From Candidatus Woesearchaeota archaeon (lineage in GTDB: Archaea; Nanobdellota; Nanobdellia; Pacearchaeales; GW2011-AR1): a DNA stretch of 37,977 nt. A program made the position numbers and the translations under genes. Each line of letters opens with the position of its first letter. Position 1 is the first letter of the stretch. The notes under the pieces are model-generated. The model was given only the letters and a program-made list of their open reading frames with translations. It made no database searches and was not told the DNA's origin. Positions 9,681-32,225 of the stretch are shown piece by piece. The stretch is from positions 1 to 37,977 of the forward strand of contig CAZZCD010000001.1 in the NCBI GenBank assembly GCA_964652735.1, given 5' to 3'.

Positions 9681-12600
9681 TTATGTTCTCCCAACATATC
9701 CTTTTCTTGGTTTGAAAATAACCCCGCTTATGTCAAGCTTTGTTATAGCCTCATCAATTTCATCTTTAGTAAGTTTTCCTTCAAGCTCTTTTTCTATCTC
9801 TTCTATAGGAATCATTTTCCCTAACTTATTTTCAAGATTTGTTATAGTATCTCTTACAAGGAAAACTTTGTTTCTCTGAGAAGCAGGCATGCCACCTGTT
9901 CCCCTGTCAATATCAAATGTTTTGGATTCATAATCATAACCTACCTGGGTTAAATAATATTTCATTATTTCTATTGCTCTTTTTGAATCTTCCATTGTTA
10001 CTTTTTCACTAAGCCTCATCTTTGCAGAAGCTTCTGACATTCTTATCAGAGCCTGAAGCTGCCTTGCAGAAATCGGAATAGGTCTTAAAACACCTTCAGA
10101 AGAAACAGGCATATTTCTTAGTTCAACATAAAATTTTTTTATTTCTTCGACAGCATCATCAGTCAGTACGGGTTTTATTCTTTGTTTTGCATAAGCAATA
10201 TATTTTCTAAAAAGCTCTTTTGGAATTAGCATATCTTCTCCTTCTTTTTGATGTGCATATAAAACATGAATTGCAATAAGTTCATCTTTTTTTCTGTCTG
10301 GAAGATCCCTTAAAGGAAAAATTACATCAAACCTATTAATAAGTGTAGGAGGTAAATCAATCTGCTGTGCGATTGGCTGGTAAGGATCAAATCTTCCAAA
10401 TTTTGGATTTGCTGCAGCAAGCACAGAAGTTTCAGCTCTTAGTGTATTACCTTGTATAGCTATTTTTCCATTCCTTCTTGTAACAAAGAATCCAGTATCA
10501 GTTGAAAAACAAAACACTTTTCCATTGTAATTTATTTTTTTTATTGAACTTCTTTTCATTTCTAATTCTTTTTTGTTAGAGATAGAAACTCTATACGCTG
10601 TTTTTCTTTTTCCTCTTGTTCCTTCCTTATAATGTATGTGTTGAGAAGCAGATTTCCCTGTTAAATGGGTTATTATCTGAAATTCATCTATTAATTCTTT
10701 TGAAATACACGAAAAATATTTTCCATCTGATGAGCCATCTCCAAGCATCATAGCATTGTATAAGGTTTTTAGCTGTTTTTTTGATAGTAATGAAAAATTT
10801 ATACTGAGATTTTTGAAATAACTTTTTTCTCCACATTTTCTTAGAAATTTATAAAGCTGTGTTTGAGTTATTTTAAATCTTACATATTGTTTGCAATCAA
10901 TTTCAGATAGAGAGCACCCCAAGGTTTGGGTTAATTTTTTGAGACATTTTTTTATTTTATTTGCTTTAGAACCTTTTTTTTGAACTATCCCTATTGTTGG
11001 GGCAGTTTCTATTCCCCCCTCTGTTACATAATATCCTAAAAATTCTAACCAAAGATCCATAGGGATTTTTTTATCCATATGTTGGTGAGTATATTTAATG
11101 TGTTTTCTTTTTTGTTTGTGTTTTATTGCAGGAAGAATAAAATATTTTTGTTCTTTTCCAGAATATTCTCCAGAATTAAGTATTTTTATTCTGTGTGAAG
11201 TTATATTTTCCGCATTTATCTTTTCATACTTTTTCCCTTTTTCCCTTTTTAGAAGCATTGTGTGATTGGGAGTGACTAAGATATCATTTCTTCTATTTTT
11301 AAAATGATACATTTTTCCTTTATAATCATAAACATAAAGTCCTTTATGGGGTAAAAATTTAATTGTTTTGTCTAATGGATTATATTGGGCAATTTTTTCA
11401 TTTTTAACTTCATAATATTTTTTCCAACCTTTTTCTGTGAGAACCATGGTGTCTTTGGAATAACATGCTTGAACATTAGCCTTGCTGATTGTTATTGTTT
11501 GTTGTTCCATTGCCTCATGCATAGCGCTTCTGTCACTTGGATCCATTTTTTCAAGCTCATCTATACACACAAGTCCTTTATTTGCAAGAACCATGGCCCC
11601 TGCTTCAAGAGACCAGCCACGTAGGTATTCATCACGCATAACTGTGGCGGTCAATCCTGCTCCTGAGGCAGATTTTCCTACAACATATCTTCCTTTTGGA
11701 GAGATTCTTGACATAAAAACAAGAGTTGCTGACTTTGCAACACCAGGATCTCCTATAAGAAGAATATGTAAATCACCACGACTTTTCTGTCCGTCTGCAT
11801 GAACTTTTGCAACTCCTCCAAACAACTGCAGGACAAGAGATTGTTTTATCTCAGTATAACCCCATACACTTGGGATAATACTTTTTGTCAGTTTTTCAAA
11901 TATTCCTGGGTCTTGTGAAAGTTCAAGTATTTGTCTTTCATCCTCCTCGTTTATATCAAGCTCTTCAAAAGTTTCTTCCATAGGAATTATATTATTGGCT
12001 TCAAGCGCAAGCTCAAACCGTGTTGATAATCCCCCAGAATGAAGAGGAACAGGAACTTCTTTTAAAATCCCAATAGATTTAACCCTGCTTCCAGGTGTTG
12101 TTTTTTCTTCCATTTTTGGCTCAACAAGATCTTCATTAAGGAAAACATTTATTCTTTTTGGCTGTTCTCCCCCTGATAAAGATTCAGGAGCTTCTTCAAT
12201 CACAAGTCTTTGAGTATCAACCATCTCTTTACTAATAAGTCTGAAGCTACCCCTTCTTCCACAAGAACATCTGGCAGGTTCACGGAACTTTTTTTCTATT
12301 TGCAAAACAGAAATAACAGTGCCACACGAAGGACATTCAAATTTTGCATTTATAACCTGAGGCCGTACATCTGATGCCTGCCTTACAATACCTTCAATGA
12401 TAATCATTTCATTAAGATCTTTTGAACGAATGTTTCTTACTTTTATCTCCTGGCTTTTTGGAAGATTCACAAGGCGAACTCTTAAATTGGTTATAAGACC
12501 TGTTTCTTCAATAGCCAACTCAACTATTCCCAAGGCTTCTTCAGGATTTATAAGTATTTCTTCAGCAAGTTTGTTTGAGAATTCTGTAAGTTTTGTGAAG

Positions 12601-12731
12601 TCGAGGTGTATTACATTTTTTCCTTTTCTGATAGACTCACCAATTTCTTTTTTATGAAACTCAAAGAAATTTTTTGCCTCAATCATTAATTCCTCATTTT
12701 TTGATTTGTTTGTCTGAACTTGCTCATCCAT
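9681..12731 (-). CDS. mcm: MCM replicative helicase, interrupted by an intein (1016 aa precursor, 676 aa after splicing)
   Basis: Zinc motif CPSCG...CSCG, Walker A LLIGDPGVAKS, Walker B GLVCIDELEKM, then QTITISKANVQA | intein | TLRAETSVLAAANP (arginine-finger region). Confidence 0.95.
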   Translation of the reverse strand: MDEQVQTNKSKNEELMIEAKNFFEFHKKEIGESIRKGKNVIHLDFTKLTEFSNKLAEEILINPEEALGIVELAIEETGLITNLRVRLVNLPKSQEIKVRNIRSKDLNEMIIIEGIVRQASDVRPQVINAKFECPSCGTVISVLQIEKKFREPARCSCGRRGSFRLISKEMVDTQRLVIEEAPESLSGGEQPKRINVFLNEDLVEPKMEEKTTPGSRVKSIGILKEVPVPLHSGGLSTRFELALEANNIIPMEETFEELDINEEDERQILELSQDPGIFEKLTKSIIPSVWGYTEIKQSLVLQLFGGVAKVHADGQKSRGDLHILLIGDPGVAKSATLVFMSRISPKGRYVVGKSASGAGLTATVMRDEYLRGWSLEAGAMVLANKGLVCIDELEKMDPSDRSAMHEAMEQQTITISKANVQACYSKDTMVLTEKGWKKYYEVKNEKIAQYNPLDKTIKFLPHKGLYVYDYKGKMYHFKNRRNDILVTPNHTMLLKREKGKKYEKINAENITSHRIKILNSGEYSGKEQKYFILPAIKHKQKRKHIKYTHQHMDKKIPMDLWLEFLGYYVTEGGIETAPTIGIVQKKGSKANKIKKCLKKLTQTLGCSLSEIDCKQYVRFKITQTQLYKFLRKCGEKSYFKNLSINFSLLSKKQLKTLYNAMMLGDGSSDGKYFSCISKELIDEFQIITHLTGKSASQHIHYKEGTRGKRKTAYRVSISNKKELEMKRSSIKKINYNGKVFCFSTDTGFFVTRRNGKIAIQGNTLRAETSVLAAANPKFGRFDPYQPIAQQIDLPPTLINRFDVIFPLRDLPDRKKDELIAIHVLYAHQKEGEDMLIPKELFRKYIAYAKQRIKPVLTDDAVEEIKKFYVELRNMPVSSEGVLRPIPISARQLQALIRMSEASAKMRLSEKVTMEDSKRAIEIMKYYLTQVGYDYESKTFDIDRGTGGMPASQRNKVFLVRDTITNLENKLGKMIPIEEIEKELEGKLTKDEIDEAITKLDISGVIFKPRKGYVGRT
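10446..11465 (-). mobile_element. MCM intein with LAGLIDADG homing-endonuclease domain (aa 423-762, 340 aa)
   Basis: The intein starts CYSKDTMVL (Cys1 codon at 11463-11465). Block B is VTPNH. LAGLIDADG motifs are LEFLGYYVTEGG and LYNAMMLGDGSS. It ends ...GKIAIQGN followed by Thr+1 (Asn codon at 10446-10448). Confidence 0.85.
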
Positions 12732-13025: not shown

Positions 13026-14537
13026 ATGGAAGTTAAATTAGCAGGAATTAATGTTCCAATAGGAATTCTGAGTAAGCTGCCCGAATCTGAGAAAGTCAGA
13101 GCTACACCAGAGGTTATTTCAGCAGCCTATGCGCGGATAAGCAGGAGCACTAAAAGCGTTGATGAACTTGTAATGGAATCTATAGAGAATGTTCAAAAGG
13201 CACGAGAGTCTAATGAAGCAATTATTTATGGTATGGGGCATCATTCTATTGCTGATCATGTGATTTTTAACTTAAACATTAAAGGAGTTTCGCGACTTCT
13301 TATTGAAAGCATAGAAAAAAGGCGTCTTGCAGGTTATACTGAAAAATCACAAAGATATGTAACTCTAGATGGGGACTATGTAAGGCCAAAAGAATTTTCT
13401 CCTAAAGATTTAGGAAAATTTGAAAAGCTTATCACCTTACAAAACGAATTTTATTTTAAGGTAAACCCGAGACTTTTAAATCATTTGAAAAAAAAGTTTC
13501 CTGATAATGGAGAAAAATTTTTAGAGAGCAAAGCAAAAGAAGACGCTCGCTTTAGTTTGGGTCTTGCAACAGAAGCCCAGCTTGGATGCTCATATACAGG
13601 TCAGACAGCAGAACTTGCAATTCGTGAGTTGAAATATGGTAGGTTGCAAGAAGAGAGAGAATTTGCCAAACTTCTTTATAATACAATTGTGAAAAAAGCC
13701 CCCTCAATAATTCAATTGACTGACCCTGAATTGTTTTCACAACACAATCCTGGACAAGAATTTAAAGACGACAATTTTAAGTTTACAAAAAGCAACCTTG
13801 AGAGCCTTGTGAAAAAGACTTTTGCTGAGAATCAGGAATTTATAGACTACCATGAAGTTGGGTTAGGGGGTAATTTTAGTTATTATGATAAGGTGACTCT
13901 TGTTAATTCTAATGATATAGACCTAAACATCCTTACAGCAATTTTACATAAAAATTCAAAAAGAGATATTCGGGAATGTTATGCTATATCAACCTTGTTA
14001 ATAGAGAGGGGAAGTGCTCAGGCTTTTATTAAAGAAGCCTTAAAACACATCAGCGAGCATGATAAAGTTCCTAGAGAATTTGAAACTTCTGGGTTAATTT
14101 ATGAGGTTGTTATTAGTGCAAGTGGTTTTGCACAGTTAAAAAGGCATAGAATGAATACTTTGCTTTCACAAGATTATAATCCAGATATAGGTTACACAAT
14201 TCCACAAAGCATTGAAGAGATTGGGGCATCCCGGGGTCTTAAAGGGGTTTGTGATAAAAGTTCAGAACTTTATAAAAAATTTTTATCAAAATACGGTAGA
14301 GCTGCTGAATACTGCCTAACAAATGCACATAGAAGGAGAGTTATTGTCGCAACAAACATGAGACAACTTTATCATATTTCAAGGACGCGCGAAGACAAAC
14401 ACGCGCAATGGGAAATTCGAGACATAGCAAATAAGATGTCAAAGTTAGCTAAGAATATTGCGCCAGCAACAACAATTTTATTAGGAGGAAAGCATGAATT
14501 TAATGAAATAAGAGGGGGATTGTATGAAGACGAATAA
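13026..14537 (+). CDS. thyX: FAD-dependent thymidylate synthase ThyX, double-length tandem-domain form
   Basis: The N-terminal half reads GHHSIADHVIFNLNIKGVSRLLIESIEKRRLAGYTEKSQRYV, a ThyX core with RHR degraded to KRR. The C-terminal half reads ...ASGFAQLKRHRMNTLLSQ ... NMRQLYHISRTREDKHAQWEIRDIA, a canonical RHR and ThyX C-terminal motif. At 503 aa it is about twice the typical length. Confidence 0.7.
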   Translation: MEVKLAGINVPIGILSKLPESEKVRATPEVISAAYARISRSTKSVDELVMESIENVQKARESNEAIIYGMGHHSIADHVIFNLNIKGVSRLLIESIEKRRLAGYTEKSQRYVTLDGDYVRPKEFSPKDLGKFEKLITLQNEFYFKVNPRLLNHLKKKFPDNGEKFLESKAKEDARFSLGLATEAQLGCSYTGQTAELAIRELKYGRLQEEREFAKLLYNTIVKKAPSIIQLTDPELFSQHNPGQEFKDDNFKFTKSNLESLVKKTFAENQEFIDYHEVGLGGNFSYYDKVTLVNSNDIDLNILTAILHKNSKRDIRECYAISTLLIERGSAQAFIKEALKHISEHDKVPREFETSGLIYEVVISASGFAQLKRHRMNTLLSQDYNPDIGYTIPQSIEEIGASRGLKGVCDKSSELYKKFLSKYGRAAEYCLTNAHRRRVIVATNMRQLYHISRTREDKHAQWEIRDIANKMSKLAKNIAPATTILLGGKHEFNEIRGGLYEDE

Positions 14538-25746: not shown

Positions 25747-28128
25747 ATGAAACACTATGATGCTAAAGAAGTAGAAGAAAAGATAAAAAAGTTCTGGGAA
25801 AAGGAGAAGATTTACAAGTTTGACAAGAAAAAAGGAAAAATTTACAGTATTGATACACCCCCACCATATGCTTCTTCTGGTCATTTGCATGTAGGTCATG
25901 CTTTGCATTATACACAATTTGAGATTATAGCAAGAATTAGAAGACAGTTAGGATTTAATGTTTATTTTGCTCCTGGTTTTGATGACAATGGACTTCCAAC
26001 TGAAAAATATGTTGAAGAGAAATTAGGAATAGATAAATCAAAGACAAATAGGGCTGAATTCAGAAAATTATGTTTAAAAGAGAGTGAAAAAGTTGAAAAA
26101 ATTTATACTGAGAGAGTTTTCAAAAGATTAGGATATAGTTATGATTGGAGTTTGTTATATACAACCATTTCTAAAGAAGCACAGAAAGTAGCTCAAATGT
26201 CTTTTTTAAAATTAGTGAAAAAAGGAGATTGTTATAGATCAGAAGAACCTGTAATATGGTGTCCTTATCATGAGACAGCCCTAGCTCAGGCAGAAGTTGA
26301 AGATTTACAGAGAGAAACTAAACTAAATTATATTGATTTCAATCTTGTTGGAGGTGGAAAAATAAATATCGCTACGACCAGACCAGAATTTCTTCCTGCT
26401 TGTGTAGCTATTTTTGTACATCCTAAAGATAAAAAAAATAAAAACTTAATCGGAAAAGAAGTTATTATCCCTTTGTTTAATCATAAAGTTAAAGTTATGA
26501 CTGATGAAAGTGTTGATCCTGAATTTGGAACAGGTACTATGATGGTTTGTACTTTTGGAGATAATGCAGATATAGAAAAGTGGAAAAAATACAAATTTGA
26601 CCTTAGAGATATTGTGAATAAAGATGGAACCTTGAATCAAAGAGCAGACCAATATCAAGGAATGAAGCTGGAAGAAGCTAAAGAAGCCATAATAAATGAT
26701 TTAATGAAAATAGGGAGAATAAAAAAACAAGAGCCTTTGCAGCAGACAGTTGGTAGTTGTTGGAGATGTTCCACACCTGTTGAATATATAATAGCGAAAC
26801 AATGGTTTATTAAGACTTTAAAATATAAGAAGGAATTGATTAAAAGAGGAAAGCAGATTAAATGGTATCCTCATTTTATGAGGAAGAGATTTGAAAACTG
26901 GACAGAAAATTTAGGATGGGATTGGGTTATTTCGAGACAAAGATTTTATGGAGTACCTATTCCTGCATGGTATTGTGAAGATTGTGATGAGATAATTTTA
27001 CCGAACGAAAAGGAATTACCTATTGATTCAATTGCCACAAAAAGAAAATGTCCTAAATGTAAAAAAGAAGCTATTCCAGATACAGATGTTTTTGATACAT
27101 GGATGACTTCTAGTAATACTCCTGAAATAGCAAGTAGATGGTTAGAAAAACCAGAACTTTACAAAAAAATTTCCCCTATGTCGTTGCGACCGCAGTCACA
27201 CGATATAATAAGGACTTGGGCTTTTTACACAATTTTGAAGAGTCATCTATTATTCAACAGAATTCCCTGGAAAAACATCATGATTGGAACTTATGTTCTT
27301 GATTCTAAGGGTAAAGGAATGCATAAATCTAAAGGAAACGTTATATTGGCAGACGAATTAATAAAAAAGTATAATGTTGATGCATTTAGATATTGGGTTG
27401 GAGGTGCAAGCTTAGGAAGTGATTTACCTTTTGATGAAAAAGAATTGATAGCAGGAAAAAGATTCTTAACCAAGTTATGGAACGCTTCTAGATTTGTTTT
27501 TATGAATCTTAAAAACTATGGGGGAAAAAGACCAAAAAAACTAGAAAAAATTGATGAATTATTTTTACAAGAATTATCTCTTTTAGTTAATGAAGTTAAA
27601 AATCATTTTTTAAAATATAATATCGCTGAAGGAAAAAGAAAAATTGAAACTTTCTTTTGGAACGCATTTTGTGATAATTATTTAGAACTTATTAAGAAAA
27701 GAATTTATCAAAATAAATCAGGGAAACAATCTGCACAATACACACTTTATCATTCTTTCTTAACTATTCTAAAATTAATTTCTCCAATCACTCCTTTTAT
27801 TACAGAAAAGCTTTATCAGGAATATTTCAAAAAATATGAGAAACTTAAGAGCATTCATCTTTCTGATTGGCCGGAATATAAGAAAATAAAAAGATCAAAA
27901 GACTGGAATATTATCACTAAAAATGTTTCATTGGTTAGACAAGCAAAAACTAAAAAACAAGTTCCATTAAATTTTGCAAGTGGAGCTATAATTATTCCTA
28001 CAGAAGAATACAAGCTCCTTAAAAATTATGAAGAGCCTTTTTTAGCTGCTTCAGGAGCAATATGTATTAAAGTAGGCAAGAAATTTGAAATAGATATCCA
28101 AAAGGAGAGAACCCAAATTAAAAAATGA
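25747..28128 (+). CDS. valS: valyl-tRNA synthetase
   Basis: DTPPPYASSGHLHVGHAL is the HIGH region of archaeal ValRS type. Also present are GFDDNGLPTE, TTRPEFLPACVAIFVHP, GTGTMMVCTFGD and the KMSKS variant GMHKSKGN. IleRS or LeuRS is less likely but not excluded without an alignment. Confidence 0.82.
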   Translation: MKHYDAKEVEEKIKKFWEKEKIYKFDKKKGKIYSIDTPPPYASSGHLHVGHALHYTQFEIIARIRRQLGFNVYFAPGFDDNGLPTEKYVEEKLGIDKSKTNRAEFRKLCLKESEKVEKIYTERVFKRLGYSYDWSLLYTTISKEAQKVAQMSFLKLVKKGDCYRSEEPVIWCPYHETALAQAEVEDLQRETKLNYIDFNLVGGGKINIATTRPEFLPACVAIFVHPKDKKNKNLIGKEVIIPLFNHKVKVMTDESVDPEFGTGTMMVCTFGDNADIEKWKKYKFDLRDIVNKDGTLNQRADQYQGMKLEEAKEAIINDLMKIGRIKKQEPLQQTVGSCWRCSTPVEYIIAKQWFIKTLKYKKELIKRGKQIKWYPHFMRKRFENWTENLGWDWVISRQRFYGVPIPAWYCEDCDEIILPNEKELPIDSIATKRKCPKCKKEAIPDTDVFDTWMTSSNTPEIASRWLEKPELYKKISPMSLRPQSHDIIRTWAFYTILKSHLLFNRIPWKNIMIGTYVLDSKGKGMHKSKGNVILADELIKKYNVDAFRYWVGGASLGSDLPFDEKELIAGKRFLTKLWNASRFVFMNLKNYGGKRPKKLEKIDELFLQELSLLVNEVKNHFLKYNIAEGKRKIETFFWNAFCDNYLELIKKRIYQNKSGKQSAQYTLYHSFLTILKLISPITPFITEKLYQEYFKKYEKLKSIHLSDWPEYKKIKRSKDWNIITKNVSLVRQAKTKKQVPLNFASGAIIIPTEEYKLLKNYEEPFLAASGAICIKVGKKFEIDIQKERTQIKK

Positions 28129-30506
28129 CAAAATTAGATAAAACAGAACTTGCAGAAATTTTAGAGCAACTCGAGAAATACAAAGGAAAACATACAGAGC
28201 TTGTTACAATCTATGTTCCTGCAGGATATGATATTAATTCTGTACAAAGACAGCTTGGGGCAGAAAAATCAACTGCAAAAAATATTAAATCAACTTCTAC
28301 GAGGAAAAATGTTATTGATGCTTTGGAAAAACTTATTCGTGAACTTAAGACTTTGAAGAAAACCCCTGAAAATGGTCTTGCCATTTTTTCTGGAAATATT
28401 TCAAAGAGTGAAGGGCAGCAGGATTTGCAGTTATGGGCTATAGAACCTTATTCTCCGATAAAAAGCAGACTTTACAGGTGTGATAAAGAATTTGTACTTG
28501 AACCCTTGAAAGAAATGCTTGAAGTCTCTGAAGTATTTGGTCTTTTAGTTATGGATAGGAAAGAAGCAACCATAGGAATTCTTGAAGGAAAAAGGATAGA
28601 TGTTCTTCAGAAGATGACTTCTGGAGTTCCAAGTAAGGTTAGAGCTGGGGGTCAATGTTTGAATCCAGATACATTAATTATGAAAGATGACGGGGATATT
28701 TTAGAAATTAGAAACTCTCATAATCCTTCAATGATTATTTCTGAAAATTTCAATACCGAAAGAATTGAAGAGACTCCTCTTATAACTAAATGGGAAAACG
28801 AGAAAGAAATTTACAAAATAATAACTTGTTACCCTCAAATTGAAATTAAAGCTTCTGGAGAACATATCTTTTTTGTTAGAAATGAGAAAGGAATTGAAGA
28901 AAAACCTTTATCTGAGATTCATGAAAGGGATTATTTAATAATGCCTGAAAAAATTGATTTGAATTTGAAAGATCAGAAAATTTCTTTTACCCCCAAAATA
29001 AAACAATCATTTAATATGAAACAAATAAATATCCCTAAAAAAATTCATCCCTCTTTTTCAAGAATTTTGGGTTATTATTTGGGTGACGGAAGTTGGGAAA
29101 TTGATAGGATAACTTTTTTTGAACAAAGAAAAGAGGTGGCTGAGCATTACAAAAATTTAGTAATGCAGGTCTTTAGTATCAATTCTGATTTGAGATTTAG
29201 AGAAGCTAAAAATTATTGGCAATTAAGAGTTTATAGCAGAATTGTTTCCCAGTTAATTAAACAGATATTTTCTAAATCTGATAAGACATTAACAGAAAGA
29301 ATTCCCGCACTTGTTTTAAAATCTTCTGATAGATCCTTAGCTGCGTTTATTGGTGGTTTTTTTGATGCTGAAGGCTATGTTTCAAAAACAGGGGTGGCCT
29401 CGGGATTTAATAATGAATTGTTAGCGAAGCAGTTACAATTTTCTTTGTTAAGACTTGGAATTATAAGTTCAATAAACAAATATGATAATAAGAGAAATCC
29501 CTATTCAGATAAGATAAGGCATACTGTTTCAATTGATGATCTTGAATCCTTGAAAAAATTTAAAGGATTGATTGGATTTTGCTCTGTGGAAAAACAAAAG
29601 AAACTTAACAATTTAATAGAAAACAGGGGTAGTAGGAGTAAAGTTAGGCAGCTAATTGTCAATGGAAGCGAAGTCGCAAAAATTATAAGAAATTCAGGAT
29701 TAAACACAAGAGATTTTCATTGTGGATATTTTTTCTGCAATAAAAGACAGATGAGCAAAGAAATTTTCAAGAAAAGAATTTTAGATAAAATACAAAATGA
29801 AGAATTGAGGAAAAGATTAGCGTTATTTTATAATTCCAATTTAATAGCTATTAAGATATCTAAAATTGAGAAGATTGGAATTATGCCTACGATAGACATT
29901 GAAACTAAAAATCACAATTTTCTTGCTAATGGATTAATAGTACATAATTCAAGTCAGAGATTTCACAGAATTACAGAAGGTCTTACAAAAGAGTTTTATA
30001 AAAGAATTGCAGATGAAATGAAAAAAATATTTTTTAACATGCCTAAATTGAAAGGAATTATTATTGGGGGGCCTGTGCCAACAAAAGACGAGTTCTTGGA
30101 TGTAGAATATATGGCTACACAGCTTAGAGAAAAGATTATTGGAAAAATTGACATAGGAGATGCTTCAGAATCAGGACTTAACGAACTTGTTGGAAAATCA
30201 CAAAATCTTTTAAAAGACCATGAAAGAACCTTAGAGAAAAAAGATATTGAAAAGTTTTTTAAGAATCTTGGGGAGAATCCAGAAAAGACTTTTCTTGGAG
30301 AAGAAAACAATAAAAGGGCTTTGGAGGTAGGAGCTGTAGACATTCTATATTTATCAAACAAACTCTCAAAATCACTTGTAAAAGAGCTAACTAAGATGGC
30401 TGAAAACACAGGGGCTGAAGTAAAAGTAATATCAACAGAAACCACTGAAGGAGAGCAGTTTTATAATATGGGGGGAATTGGTTCTATTTTAAGGTTTAAG
30501 GTTTGA
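28125..30506 (+). CDS. prf1: peptide chain release factor aRF1, interrupted by an intein (793 aa precursor, 362 aa after splicing)
   Basis: NIKS motif (AKNIKS), YxCxxxF (LYRCDKEF) and the GGQ motif RAGGQ | intein | SSQRFHR. The start overlaps the valS stop (ATGA). Confidence 0.93.
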   Translation: MTKLDKTELAEILEQLEKYKGKHTELVTIYVPAGYDINSVQRQLGAEKSTAKNIKSTSTRKNVIDALEKLIRELKTLKKTPENGLAIFSGNISKSEGQQDLQLWAIEPYSPIKSRLYRCDKEFVLEPLKEMLEVSEVFGLLVMDRKEATIGILEGKRIDVLQKMTSGVPSKVRAGGQCLNPDTLIMKDDGDILEIRNSHNPSMIISENFNTERIEETPLITKWENEKEIYKIITCYPQIEIKASGEHIFFVRNEKGIEEKPLSEIHERDYLIMPEKIDLNLKDQKISFTPKIKQSFNMKQINIPKKIHPSFSRILGYYLGDGSWEIDRITFFEQRKEVAEHYKNLVMQVFSINSDLRFREAKNYWQLRVYSRIVSQLIKQIFSKSDKTLTERIPALVLKSSDRSLAAFIGGFFDAEGYVSKTGVASGFNNELLAKQLQFSLLRLGIISSINKYDNKRNPYSDKIRHTVSIDDLESLKKFKGLIGFCSVEKQKKLNNLIENRGSRSKVRQLIVNGSEVAKIIRNSGLNTRDFHCGYFFCNKRQMSKEIFKKRILDKIQNEELRKRLALFYNSNLIAIKISKIEKIGIMPTIDIETKNHNFLANGLIVHNSSQRFHRITEGLTKEFYKRIADEMKKIFFNMPKLKGIIIGGPVPTKDEFLDVEYMATQLREKIIGKIDIGDASESGLNELVGKSQNLLKDHERTLEKKDIEKFFKNLGENPEKTFLGEENNKRALEVGAVDILYLSNKLSKSLVKELTKMAENTGAEVKVISTETTEGEQFYNMGGIGSILRFKV
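28656..29948 (+). mobile_element. aRF1 intein with LAGLIDADG homing-endonuclease domain (aa 178-608, 431 aa), inserted directly after the GGQ glutamine
   Basis: The intein starts CLNPDTLIM (TGT at 28656-28658). Block B is ASGEH. LAGLIDADG motifs are ILGYYLGDGSW and FIGGFFDAEGYV. The C-terminal blocks TIDIETKNHNFLANGLIVHN are followed by Ser+1 (AAT at 29946-29948). Confidence 0.87.
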
Positions 30507-30508
30507 AA

Positions 30509-30985
30509 ATGGATAAAGAGAAAGATGATTTGAAAAAGATAGAAGCTATACTTTTTATTTCTGGTAGATTTCTCAATATGCAAGAGTTAATATCACTTTC
30601 TGATTTAAATCCAATAGTAATTAGAGATTTATTAGAGCAACTTGAGCAGAAATATGAAAAGCAGGATTCAGCGCTTCAAATAGTTGAGAAAAACAATATG
30701 TGGAAAATGGATGTGAAATCTGAGTTTTCACATATTATTAATCGTTTGGCAACAGGATCTTCAGAATTTTCAAAAGCAGAGCAGGAAACTCTTGCAATTA
30801 TTGCTCTTAAACAACCAATAAAGCAATCAGTGATTGTAAAAATAAGAGGGAACAAAGCTTATGACCACACAAAGAAATTTTCTGGATTAGGATTGATAAA
30901 AAAGAAAAAAACAGGGCGCACTTATGAATTAAGTTTAAAAGAAGATTTTTATGATTATTTTAATATTTCTAAAGGAGGAACTTAA
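30509..30985 (+). CDS. scpB: segregation and condensation protein B (ScpB)-like winged-helix protein
   Basis: KKIEAILFISGRFLNMQEL... and SKAEQETLAIIALKQPIKQSVIVKIRG indicate two winged-helix repeats. The track start at 30503 is a TTG overlapping the aRF1 stop. The ATG at 30509 is the alternative used here. Confidence 0.7.
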   Translation: MDKEKDDLKKIEAILFISGRFLNMQELISLSDLNPIVIRDLLEQLEQKYEKQDSALQIVEKNNMWKMDVKSEFSHIINRLATGSSEFSKAEQETLAIIALKQPIKQSVIVKIRGNKAYDHTKKFSGLGLIKKKKTGRTYELSLKEDFYDYFNISKGGT

Positions 30986-30992
30986 ATAAAAA

Positions 30993-32225
30993 ATGCCTGA
31001 ACTATTAACAATAATCTACCTTGTTTATTCTTTCATAGCTTTTTATTTTCTTTTTCTTTTTCTTTTGATTTATGCAAAAAACAAAAAAGATTTCTTTTCT
31101 ATCCCAAAAATAACTAAAAATTATTCTTTAAGCATAGTAATTCCTTGTTATAATGAAGAAGAGAATATAGGGGAGACAATTGAAGCAATTCTCAATTCAG
31201 ACTATAAAGGGCTTAAAAAAATAATTGTTGTTGATGACTGTAGCACAGACAATTCTTATGAGGTTATAAAAAAATACGCAAAAAAATATAAAAGAGTTAT
31301 AGGTGTAAAAACTCTGAAAAATACAGGAAAGGCCAGCGGTTCAAAAAATTACGGGGCAAAATTTGCTGATACAGAGCTTATTGGTTTTGTTGATGCAGAC
31401 TCTTATCCTCAGAAAGATGCTATAAGAAAGATGATAGGTTTTTTTGATGATAAAAATATAGTATCTGTGACATCCTCTATTTTTGTTAAAAGAAGAAAAA
31501 GCTTTATTGAGAAATTGCAGTCAATCGAGTATAGAATAATTGCTTTTACAAGAAAACTTTTAGGGTTTGTTGGTGCAATCTATGTTACTCCAGGACCATT
31601 AGCAGTATATAGAAAGAAGGCTTTTGATGATGTGGGGAGATTTGATGAAAACAACCTTACAGAAGATATTGAGATAACATGGAATTTTCTTTCTAAGGGG
31701 TATGAAATTGAAATGAGTGTTCCTTCAAGAGCCTACACCGTTGCACCTAACAAATTTAAAACATGGTATCTCCAAAGAGTAAGATGGAATATTGGAGGAA
31801 TACAGACTATAAATAAATACAAAAAAACTTTTGCAAGAAAGGGAATCTTAGGAAGATTTGTTTTACCATTTTTTATATTATCCTGGATATTGGGAATTTT
31901 AGGAATAGGGGTTCTAATTTATAGGGGATTCAGAAGAATTATTATCCACTTCCTTATTACAAAATATTCTATAGGGGCACAGACAGCTGTTTTAACTTTA
32001 AGAGAAATAAATCTTACCCCAAATGTTCTTTTGTTTTTTGGAGTTTCTATCCTTCTCCTTAGCTTATCATTTACAATTTTAGCACTTTCATATTCAAAAG
32101 AAAAAAAATTTAAAAAGGTGAAGATATTCAATATTTTAATATATTCATTTATTTATCTACTTGCATATCCCATTATATTAATAACATCAATATTTAAATA
32201 TATGAAAAAAGACAGAGCCTGGTAA
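30993..32225 (+). CDS. integral-membrane family 2 glycosyltransferase (processive synthase type)
   Basis: SIVIPCYNEE, VVDDCSTD, DADS and TEDIE are present, together with the QRVRWNIGG (QxxRW) motif. TM segments occur at both ends. Confidence 0.85.
   Translation: MPELLTIIYLVYSFIAFYFLFLFLLIYAKNKKDFFSIPKITKNYSLSIVIPCYNEEENIGETIEAILNSDYKGLKKIIVVDDCSTDNSYEVIKKYAKKYKRVIGVKTLKNTGKASGSKNYGAKFADTELIGFVDADSYPQKDAIRKMIGFFDDKNIVSVTSSIFVKRRKSFIEKLQSIEYRIIAFTRKLLGFVGAIYVTPGPLAVYRKKAFDDVGRFDENNLTEDIEITWNFLSKGYEIEMSVPSRAYTVAPNKFKTWYLQRVRWNIGGIQTINKYKKTFARKGILGRFVLPFFILSWILGILGIGVLIYRGFRRIIIHFLITKYSIGAQTAVLTLREINLTPNVLLFFGVSILLLSLSFTILALSYSKEKKFKKVKIFNILIYSFIYLLAYPIILITSIFKYMKKDRAW

Follow-up and report, generated by a model that had tools for sequence, protein, structure and literature searches.

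A probably mobile homing-endonuclease intein placed directly after the GGQ motif of an archaeal release factor aRF1

Within a 37,977-nt contig of a Candidatus Woesearchaeota archaeon (GenBank assembly GCA_964652735.1, contig CAZZCD010000001.1; this whole stretch is referred to below as the window), the gene for release factor aRF1 encodes a protein of 793 amino acids (aa) into which a 431-aa domain has been inserted immediately downstream of the GGQ motif. Inteins favour conserved catalytic sites of essential proteins. The view taken here, to which we assign a probability of roughly 0.9, is that the insert belongs to the canonical class-1 inteins, carries a LAGLIDADG homing endonuclease with two motifs and is lodged between Gln177 and the conserved Ser of the host protein, and that the element is, or recently was, mobile. 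The gene and the landmarks of the insert are the following, all on the forward strand of the window.

28125..30506 (+): aRF1 precursor open reading frame (ORF), 793 aa plus stop codon; TIGR03676 (E = 5.9e-116) and Pfam eRF1_1, eRF1_2 and eRF1_3
28125..28655 (+): N-extein, aa 1-177, with aRF1 domain 1 and the start of domain 2, GGQ at its end
28281..28292 (+): NIKS stop-codon recognition motif, aa 53-56
28473..28493 (+): YxCxxxF motif, here YRCDKEF, aa 117-123
28647..28655 (+): GGQ, aa 175-177; Gln177 is the intein -1 residue
28656..29948 (+): putative intein of 431 aa (aa 178-608), in which a LAGLIDADG homing-endonuclease domain interrupts the Hint splicing domain
28656..28682 (+): intein block A, CLNPDTLIM, with Cys1 as first nucleophile; Cys in 120 of 121 precursors
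28845..28874 (+): intein block B, IKASGEHIFF; Ser244 and His247 invariant in the alignment of 121
29064..29096 (+): first LAGLIDADG motif, ILGYYLGDGSW, aa 314-324, with catalytic Asp321 kept in 119 of the 120 precursors not gapped at this position; Pfam LAGLIDADG_3
29346..29381 (+): second LAGLIDADG motif, FIGGFFDAEGYV, aa 408-419, with catalytic Glu416 kept in 120 of 121
29889..29948 (+): intein blocks F and G, TIDIETKNHNFLANGLIVHN; Asp591, His607 and Asn608 invariant; TIGR01443 above cut-off
29949..29951 (+): Ser609, the +1 nucleophile and the conserved Ser of GGQS; 121 of 121
29949..30503 (+): C-extein, aa 609-793, the remainder of aRF1 domain 2 (SSQRFHRITEG...) and domain 3

The identity of the host protein, as proposed in an initial annotation made from the DNA alone, is borne out by profile searches, with matches far stronger than chance would give. 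The precursor scores 387.6 bits against the aRF1 equivalog model TIGR03676 (curated cut-off 234.7), and Pfam recognises eRF1 domains 1, 2 and 3, with domain 2 falling in two stretches; NIKS and YxCxxxF lie in the N-extein, and GGQ is present as well, so that all the features by which an aRF1 is recognised are found. The reading frame is unbroken over 2379 nt and overlaps by 4 nt both the class-I aminoacyl-tRNA synthetase (aaRS) gene upstream and the ScpB gene downstream. A scan of ten large ORFs on this 38-kb contig revealed no further release factor-like gene.

The borders of the insert are defined to the residue. Cys178 opens it, His607-Asn608 close it and Ser609 comes next, and in-silico excision of aa 178-608 leaves a 362-aa aRF1 reading ...VRAGGQ/SSQRFHRITEG (the slash marks the insertion point), which restores the GGQS..RF motif at precisely the coordinates first proposed. 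The spliced protein aligns without a gap at the junction to the solved aRF1 structures of Halobacterium (4af1, E=1.4e-68) and Aeropyrum (3agk), and it aligns also to eukaryotic eRF1 structures including 1dt9, again with no gap at 'vpskvraGGQSsqRFhRi'. The earlier wording that the insert 'splits' GGQ is right in placing it at the catalytic motif, but the insert lies directly after GGQ, between Gln and Ser, and not inside the tripeptide. In composition it is slightly more AT-rich than its host gene, with a GC content of 0.286 against 0.352 and 0.332 in the exteins.

A second line of evidence for this boundary comes from empty sites in natural populations. One genome per GTDB species was scanned using the spliced-extein alignment, and in all of the best 80 loci the aRF1 gene is uninterrupted and reads VPSKVRAGGQ/SSQRFHRITE or a close variant across the site. 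These loci, at 53-79% identity, belong to metagenome-assembled genomes (MAGs) labelled Pacearchaeota, Woesearchaeota or Nanoarchaeota. Their flanking genes match those of the window (class-I aaRS at 73 loci, ScpB at 60, GT2 at 51), and in the seven intein-free loci that were inspected the aaRS, ScpB and GT2 genes adjoin aRF1 in the order seen in the window; this shared aaRS-aRF1-ScpB-GT2 synteny indicates that the intein-free loci are orthologues and not paralogues. Taken together, the gapless structural alignments and the empty orthologous sites place the insert boundary exactly at GGQ/S. The 60-nt sequences around the empty sites of the 80 alleles were collected as candidate targets of the endonuclease, and several of them are nearly identical to the reconstituted site of the window. 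In the locus L001 the empty site reads GTTCCAAGCAAAGTAAGAGCAGGAGGACAA upstream of the junction and TCAAGCCAGCGTTTTCATAGAATTACAGAA downstream of it.

Some further observations concern this neighbourhood. In the window (25747..32225, forward strand) the aaRS, aRF1, ScpB and GT2 genes are tightly packed in the manner of an operon. In two other loci, L081 and L082, unrelated genes lie between the aaRS gene and aRF1, though the aRF1 exteins are 95-96% identical at the DNA level. A 628-aa protein (P0160) joins aRF1 domains 1-2 to the C-terminal half of a class-I aaRS, and is probably a frameshifted or chimeric gene call, since the two genes are neighbours. A 149-aa ORF with a GTG start, antisense to the aRF1 C-extein (29996..30445, reverse strand), is most likely a spurious shadow ORF.

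The insert taken alone has the composition expected of an intein. Pfam Intein_splicing (PF14890) matches it at 60.4 bits (cut-off 35.8) and LAGLIDADG_3 (PF14528) at 60.5 bits in two stretches (cut-off 22.5), while the NCBIfam model for the intein C-terminus, TIGR01443, also lies above its cut-off. The best NCBIfam match to the intein alone is an intein-containing IF-2 model (NF011418, E=5.8e-15), and the remaining matches are likewise to intein-containing proteins, namely IF-2, DnaB, RFC, GyrA, ribonucleotide reductase (RNR), PolII, V-ATPase and RtcB. Among solved structures the nearest sequence relative is PI-PfuI (1dq3, E=2.2e-8), in an alignment that spans the endonuclease domain of the insert, followed by the V-ATPase inteins of Thermococcales. 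The hallmarks listed in the initial annotation were located one and all: the opening Cys, the TxxH-like block B (S-G-E-H, aa 244-247, counted as such because the change from Thr to Ser is conservative), the two LAGLIDADG motifs starting at aa 314 and 408, and the C-terminal junction, where TIDIETKNHNFLANGLIVHN with its final His-Asn is followed by Ser.

Structure prediction agrees with the profiles. An AlphaFold2 model of the whole precursor, built with 69 aligned homologues as input, has a mean predicted local distance difference test (pLDDT) score of 80, with most of the intein at about 85-94; values below 50 are confined to the GGQ loop, whose two halves are residues 169-175 and 611-616. 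When the model was compared with the Protein Data Bank by Foldseek, the best match was the TliVMA intein (7qss, E=3.4e-23, TM 0.76), with PhoVMA (7qst, TM 0.73, E=3e-15), PI-PfuI (1dq3, TM 0.65), PI-TkoII and PI-SceI among the further matches; the whole-intein structures recovered were 7qss, 7qst, 1dq3, 2cw7 and 1ef0. The same search on the precursor separately recovered the aRF1 structures 4af1 and 3agk. Sequence profiles and predicted structure thus both support the presence of Hint and LAGLIDADG folds.

The sequence of events that these features suggest can be laid out along the lines of established intein chemistry. The 793-aa precursor would be translated whole, after which an N-S acyl shift at Gln177-Cys178 would be followed by transesterification onto the Ser609 hydroxyl; Asn608 would then cyclise with the help of His607, and an O-N shift would restore the bond between Gln and Ser. 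The expected products are the 362-aa aRF1, its GGQSSQRF loop made whole, and the 431-aa intein in free form, and the latter would be able to cut intein-less aRF1 alleles across the sequence coding for GGQ/S, whereupon double-strand-break repair would copy the intein into the cut allele (homing). Because the catalytic loop is broken by a domain of 431 aa, the precursor should not place GGQ in the peptidyl-transferase centre, and it would presumably be inactive in peptide release until spliced. That this aRF1 would have to self-splice to become active, as had been proposed, is a sound deduction. Since domain 1 with its NIKS motif is intact, a slow-splicing precursor could compete for stop codons, and such competition would select for efficient splicing.

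The architecture is by no means confined to the window. At least 120 clusters at 90% identity contain proteins of 790-800 aa that have the same architecture and are 59-97% identical to the window protein. Their 120 representatives were aligned with the window protein using MAFFT, giving a set of 121 precursors in which Cys1 is kept in 120 and the block-B Ser244 and His247, the block-F Asp591, and His607, Asn608 and Ser609 in all 121; GGQ itself is invariant in this alignment. Averaged over all pairs, identity amounts to 0.70 in the intein (0.74 in its Hint part, 0.69 in its endonuclease part) as against 0.66 in the exteins. The ratio of nonsynonymous to synonymous substitution rates (dN/dS) was taken from three intein-bearing DNA sequences, and two of the three comparisons have dS close to saturation; it comes to 0.11-0.17 in the intein, 0.21 in the endonuclease domain and 0.04-0.16 in the exteins. 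Such low ratios indicate that the whole element, the nuclease included, is under purifying selection.

These data bear on the least favourable scenario, in which the insertion is splicing-dead or a product of assembly, the gene is a pseudogene or chimera, and another release factor is in use. The sequence analysed here is a single contig, MAG assemblies can be chimeric, and the NCBI pipeline did not name the protein of the relatives as aRF1. Against this stand a reading frame that is uninterrupted over its full length, the recurrence of the architecture in those many independent clusters from many samples and assemblers, splicing residues that are counted as invariant (with Cys1 itself at 120 of 121), and purifying selection on extein and intein alike. 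This scenario must be regarded as close to refuted.

An estimate of how often the site is occupied was obtained from a full HMMER scan of 1.84 billion representatives of clusters at 50% identity, with the spliced extein as query. Among the best 150 matches, 141 representatives could be classified, and 56 of these carry an insert exactly at the GGQ site; every one of the 56 inserts has Cys as its first residue and His-Asn as its last two, with Ser coming next. The scan of species genomes, by comparison, ranks loci by their best contiguous segment, which is how its best 80 loci came to be all intein-free, and it gives no frequency estimate. By size the 56 inteins fall into 16 mini-inteins of 130-152 aa, 3 of intermediate size (271-319 aa) and 37 large ones (412-577 aa). 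One representative (P0121) has at the same aRF1 site a homologous mini-intein of 135 aa without an endonuclease, which covers residues 1-98 and 396-431 when aligned with the window intein; its alignment to both ends marks it as the same Hint core minus the nuclease. The names of the sources, a handful of NCBI entries on which the taxonomic spread is based, include Pacearchaeota, Nanoarchaeota, Woesearchaeota, Aenigmatarchaeota, Nanohaloarchaea and Micrarchaeota. The suggestion in the initial annotation that the insertion point may be rare does not survive these counts: the GGQ site of aRF1 is a major intein site in DPANN-type archaea, its occupation ranks among the most frequent traits of DPANN aRF1 genes in public data, and the annotation pipeline of the JGI already labels such proteins.

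Variants of the element and of its site were encountered in the same matches. Many of the larger GGQ-site inteins carry an extra helix-turn-helix (HTH) domain of the XRE type, and in P0122, P0162, P0177, P0185 and P0261, with inteins of about 490-575 aa, an HTH_3 or HTH_31 domain lies between the Hint N-lobe and LAGLIDADG; the 431-aa intein of the window is without a domain of this type. A 929-aa protein (P0250) is an aRF1 whose GGQS is unbroken but which, inside or after domain 1, has an Intein_splicing match (aa 138-637), and its sequence points to a second, different insertion site for inteins in aRF1.

Full-length aRF1-like proteins among the HMMER matches may also have Trp, Phe, Met, Ser or Ala in place of the Gln of GGQ, followed by Ser-Gln (GGxSQ), with NIKS kept. 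This type comprises P0141, P0143, P0144, P0158, P0159, P0161, P0162, P0168, P0174, P0179, P0184, P0190, P0193, P0195, P0208, P0217, P0234, P0235, P0257, P0258 and P0266, some of them intein-free and others with an intein at the same place (GGW/C...HN/SQ). A motif of the GGxSQ type has been described for the VLRF-1 families of release factors (PMC6514570). The notion that GGW, GGF and GGM reflect a loss of the catalytic Gln was considered and rejected, as the spliced form is GGxSQ, in which a Gln is still present two residues later. These proteins may be either the sole aRF1 of their organisms or paralogues.

Evidence that the element moves comes from the comparison of its history with that of its host gene. 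The two kinds of allele that the initial annotation proposed to look for in related MAGs, with and without an insert at GGQ/S, both exist, and full-size and mini (endonuclease-deleted) forms coexist with the empty site. The intein-free locus L001 is closer to the window extein than all but three of the intein-bearing sequences. On a neighbour-joining tree of 198 exteins (121 intein-bearing, 77 intein-free), presence and absence of the intein require 56 parsimony changes, where shuffled labels give a mean of 61.5 and a minimum of 52, and for 43 of the 77 intein-free exteins the nearest neighbour is intein-bearing. Intein identity and extein identity are loosely coupled (Spearman correlation 0.45), with pairwise values between the 1st and 99th percentiles of 64-79% for inteins and 51-81% for exteins. 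One case of intein exchange is the pair P0008 and P0009, whose exteins are 98% identical while their inteins are 73% identical, with sharp transitions at both junctions; at the DNA level the exteins are 95-96% identical (dS 0.20) and the inteins 76% (dS 1.07). Inteins this divergent in near-identical hosts imply independent invasion or replacement by recombination. A patchy distribution and an intein history unlike that of the host gene, the population signature of mobility, are thus both found, and the element is, or recently was, mobile in the Pacearchaeota-like population from which this contig derives.

It could nevertheless be that the splicing domain of the window copy works while its endonuclease is an inactive relic, so that this copy is inherited vertically only and the signals of mobility stem from other members of the family. 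Loss of the endonuclease does occur, as is evident from the 16 mini and 3 mid-size forms among the 56 same-site inteins, and the closest relatives of the window protein (P0001-P0003) are similar to it in intein and extein alike, as fits recent vertical descent; moreover, the cleavage activity ascribed to the window copy is a prediction from its sequence and model. Yet this very copy has kept both LAGLIDADG motifs complete with their acidic residues, the model of its endonuclease domain is of high confidence and resembles active enzymes, and dN/dS is about 0.2 for the endonuclease in the one pair analysed by domain and 0.11-0.13 for the window intein against two relatives. A relic endonuclease is accordingly considered unlikely.

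A different kind of doubt concerns the role of the element. In many DPANN archaea the intein might have been domesticated as a regulator, with conditional splicing at the GGQ loop, sensitive to redox (through Cys1), temperature or stress, gating the supply of active aRF1 and hence every termination event, so that termination would be tuned globally. The unspliced precursor might then serve as a non-hydrolysing stop-codon binder, and since its NIKS domain is intact it could act as a dominant-negative occupant of stop codons in the ribosomal A site. In favour of such a role, the intein is conserved on average no less than its host (0.70 as against 0.66 mean pairwise identity), and it occupies the catalytic loop of one essential factor. 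Low confidence in the model is confined to the GGQ loop, a sign that the intein may fold independently, and conditional splicing has been documented for other archaeal inteins, RadA for example. Were this scenario true, the element would be more than a parasite, since it would regulate termination globally at the post-translational level. However, there are 80 syntenic orthologues in close relatives that do without the intein, its distribution over the extein tree is close to random, its history is decoupled from that of the extein, and the catalytic residues of the endonuclease are conserved; all of this is expected of a selfish mobile element and unnecessary for a regulator. Domestication is therefore given a slimmer chance than the relic endonuclease, though a better one than an artefact of assembly.

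The reading of the insert as a mobile class-1 intein has points of its own to answer, and these weigh against it to some degree. That it splices and that it cuts DNA are both things we infer. Block B has Ser where Thr is usual, and the NCBIfam model for the intein N-terminus, TIGR01445, stays under its cut-off (19.4 as against 24.5). The contig is only 38 kb long, so it is possible that a second, intein-free aRF1 is encoded elsewhere in the genome. The dN/dS ratios are few and partly saturated, as stated with them. The extein tree has 359 columns and is probably poorly resolved, and its intein-bearing and intein-free sets come from different databases, such that the near-random presence and absence on it may overstate turnover.

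In its layout the aRF1 intein is of a classical kind. The TliVMA (7qss), PhoVMA (7qst) and PI-SceI (yeast VMA1) inteins have the same Hint domain with an inserted double-motif LAGLIDADG endonuclease; they too are about 430 aa long, start with Cys1 and end in His-Asn, and TliVMA and PhoVMA are the best structural matches. They differ in that their host is the catalytic subunit of an ATPase, whereas that of the aRF1 intein is a release factor and the +1 residue a Ser, and identity in the structural alignments is 12-17%, with a sequence E-value to TliVMA of about 5e-6. PI-PfuI, from the ribonucleotide reductase of Pyrococcus furiosus, is the best sequence match among solved structures over the LAGLIDADG domain, but given its other host the kinship is a distant one at the level of the family and not allelic. 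The inteins of aIF2/IF-2 (PMC4760082) resemble the aRF1 intein in residing in a core archaeal translation protein; unlike them, the aRF1 intein interrupts the loop for peptidyl-tRNA hydrolysis, and DPANN lineages are where it is concentrated. Haloarchaeal MCM inteins, with homing dynamics at multiple sites (PMC10643990), reportedly show a similar patchiness among close relatives and occur in full-size and mini forms, although in another host gene.

The coexistence of full-size and mini forms of an intein is part of the homing-cycle model. As to the literature on intein hosts, according to Novikova et al. 2016 (PMC4760082) inteins are few among the core components of translation, and in the main text of that paper aIF2 is the only translation factor and no release factor appears among the hosts; DPANN lineages were barely sampled when that work appeared. 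The survey of release-factor evolution by Burroughs and Aravind (PMC6514570) makes no mention of inteins, and neither full-text literature searches nor searches inside PMC10710043, PMC5871332 and PMC5498576 turned up an account of any aRF1 or eRF1 intein. The other half of the earlier suggestion, that the insertion point may be uncatalogued, has thus held up within the literature searched: the aRF1 host and the GGQ/S site appear to be undescribed in the searchable literature, while the architecture of the intein is classical (VMA, RNR) and its sequence kinship distant.

Database labels are a separate matter. The JGI pipeline calls some of these proteins 'peptide subunit release factor 1 (eRF1)/intein/homing endonuclease', whereas NCBI names for intein-bearing aRF1 include 'LAGLIDADG family homing endonuclease', 'helix-turn-helix domain-containing protein' and 'hypothetical protein'. 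Names of the latter sort hide aRF1, and surveys based on them would score such genomes as being without it; the TIGR03676 model still detects the intein-bearing protein, at the score given above.

Two other genes of the window drew attention during this work. The MCM ORF (9681..12731, reverse strand, 1016 aa) has an insert of 340 aa (aa 423-762; 10446..11465, reverse strand) that starts as ...ISKANVQA/CYSKDTMVL and ends as GKIAIQGN followed by TLRAETSVLAAANP, that is, with Gly-Asn instead of His-Asn and with Thr at +1. Pfam Intein_splicing and LAGLIDADG_3 each match it at 20.8 bits, both under their cut-offs, and its LAGLIDADG motifs look degenerate; it is a probable second intein in the window. 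The ThyX ORF (13026..14537, forward strand) encodes 503 aa, about twice the usual length. As a third intein host it was rejected, because Pfam finds in it only Thy1, in two stretches, and it has no signature of the Cys...HN/S, T or C kind; it is probably a tandem two-domain ThyX.

With the aRF1 intein, the peptidyl-tRNA hydrolysis loop of an archaeal release factor is added to the known homes of inteins, and it is a well-occupied one, as about 40% of the nearest aRF1 clusters have an intein there, with Pacearchaeota, Woesearchaeota, Aenigmatarchaeota, Nanohaloarchaea and Micrarchaeota among the lineages concerned. The assembled alleles, which are empty, full-size, mid-size and mini and include cases of intein exchange, amount to a data set on the homing cycle from uncultivated archaea with tiny genomes. 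For protein engineering they offer a family of inteins with Gln at -1 and Ser at +1, among them natural mini-inteins of 130-150 aa.

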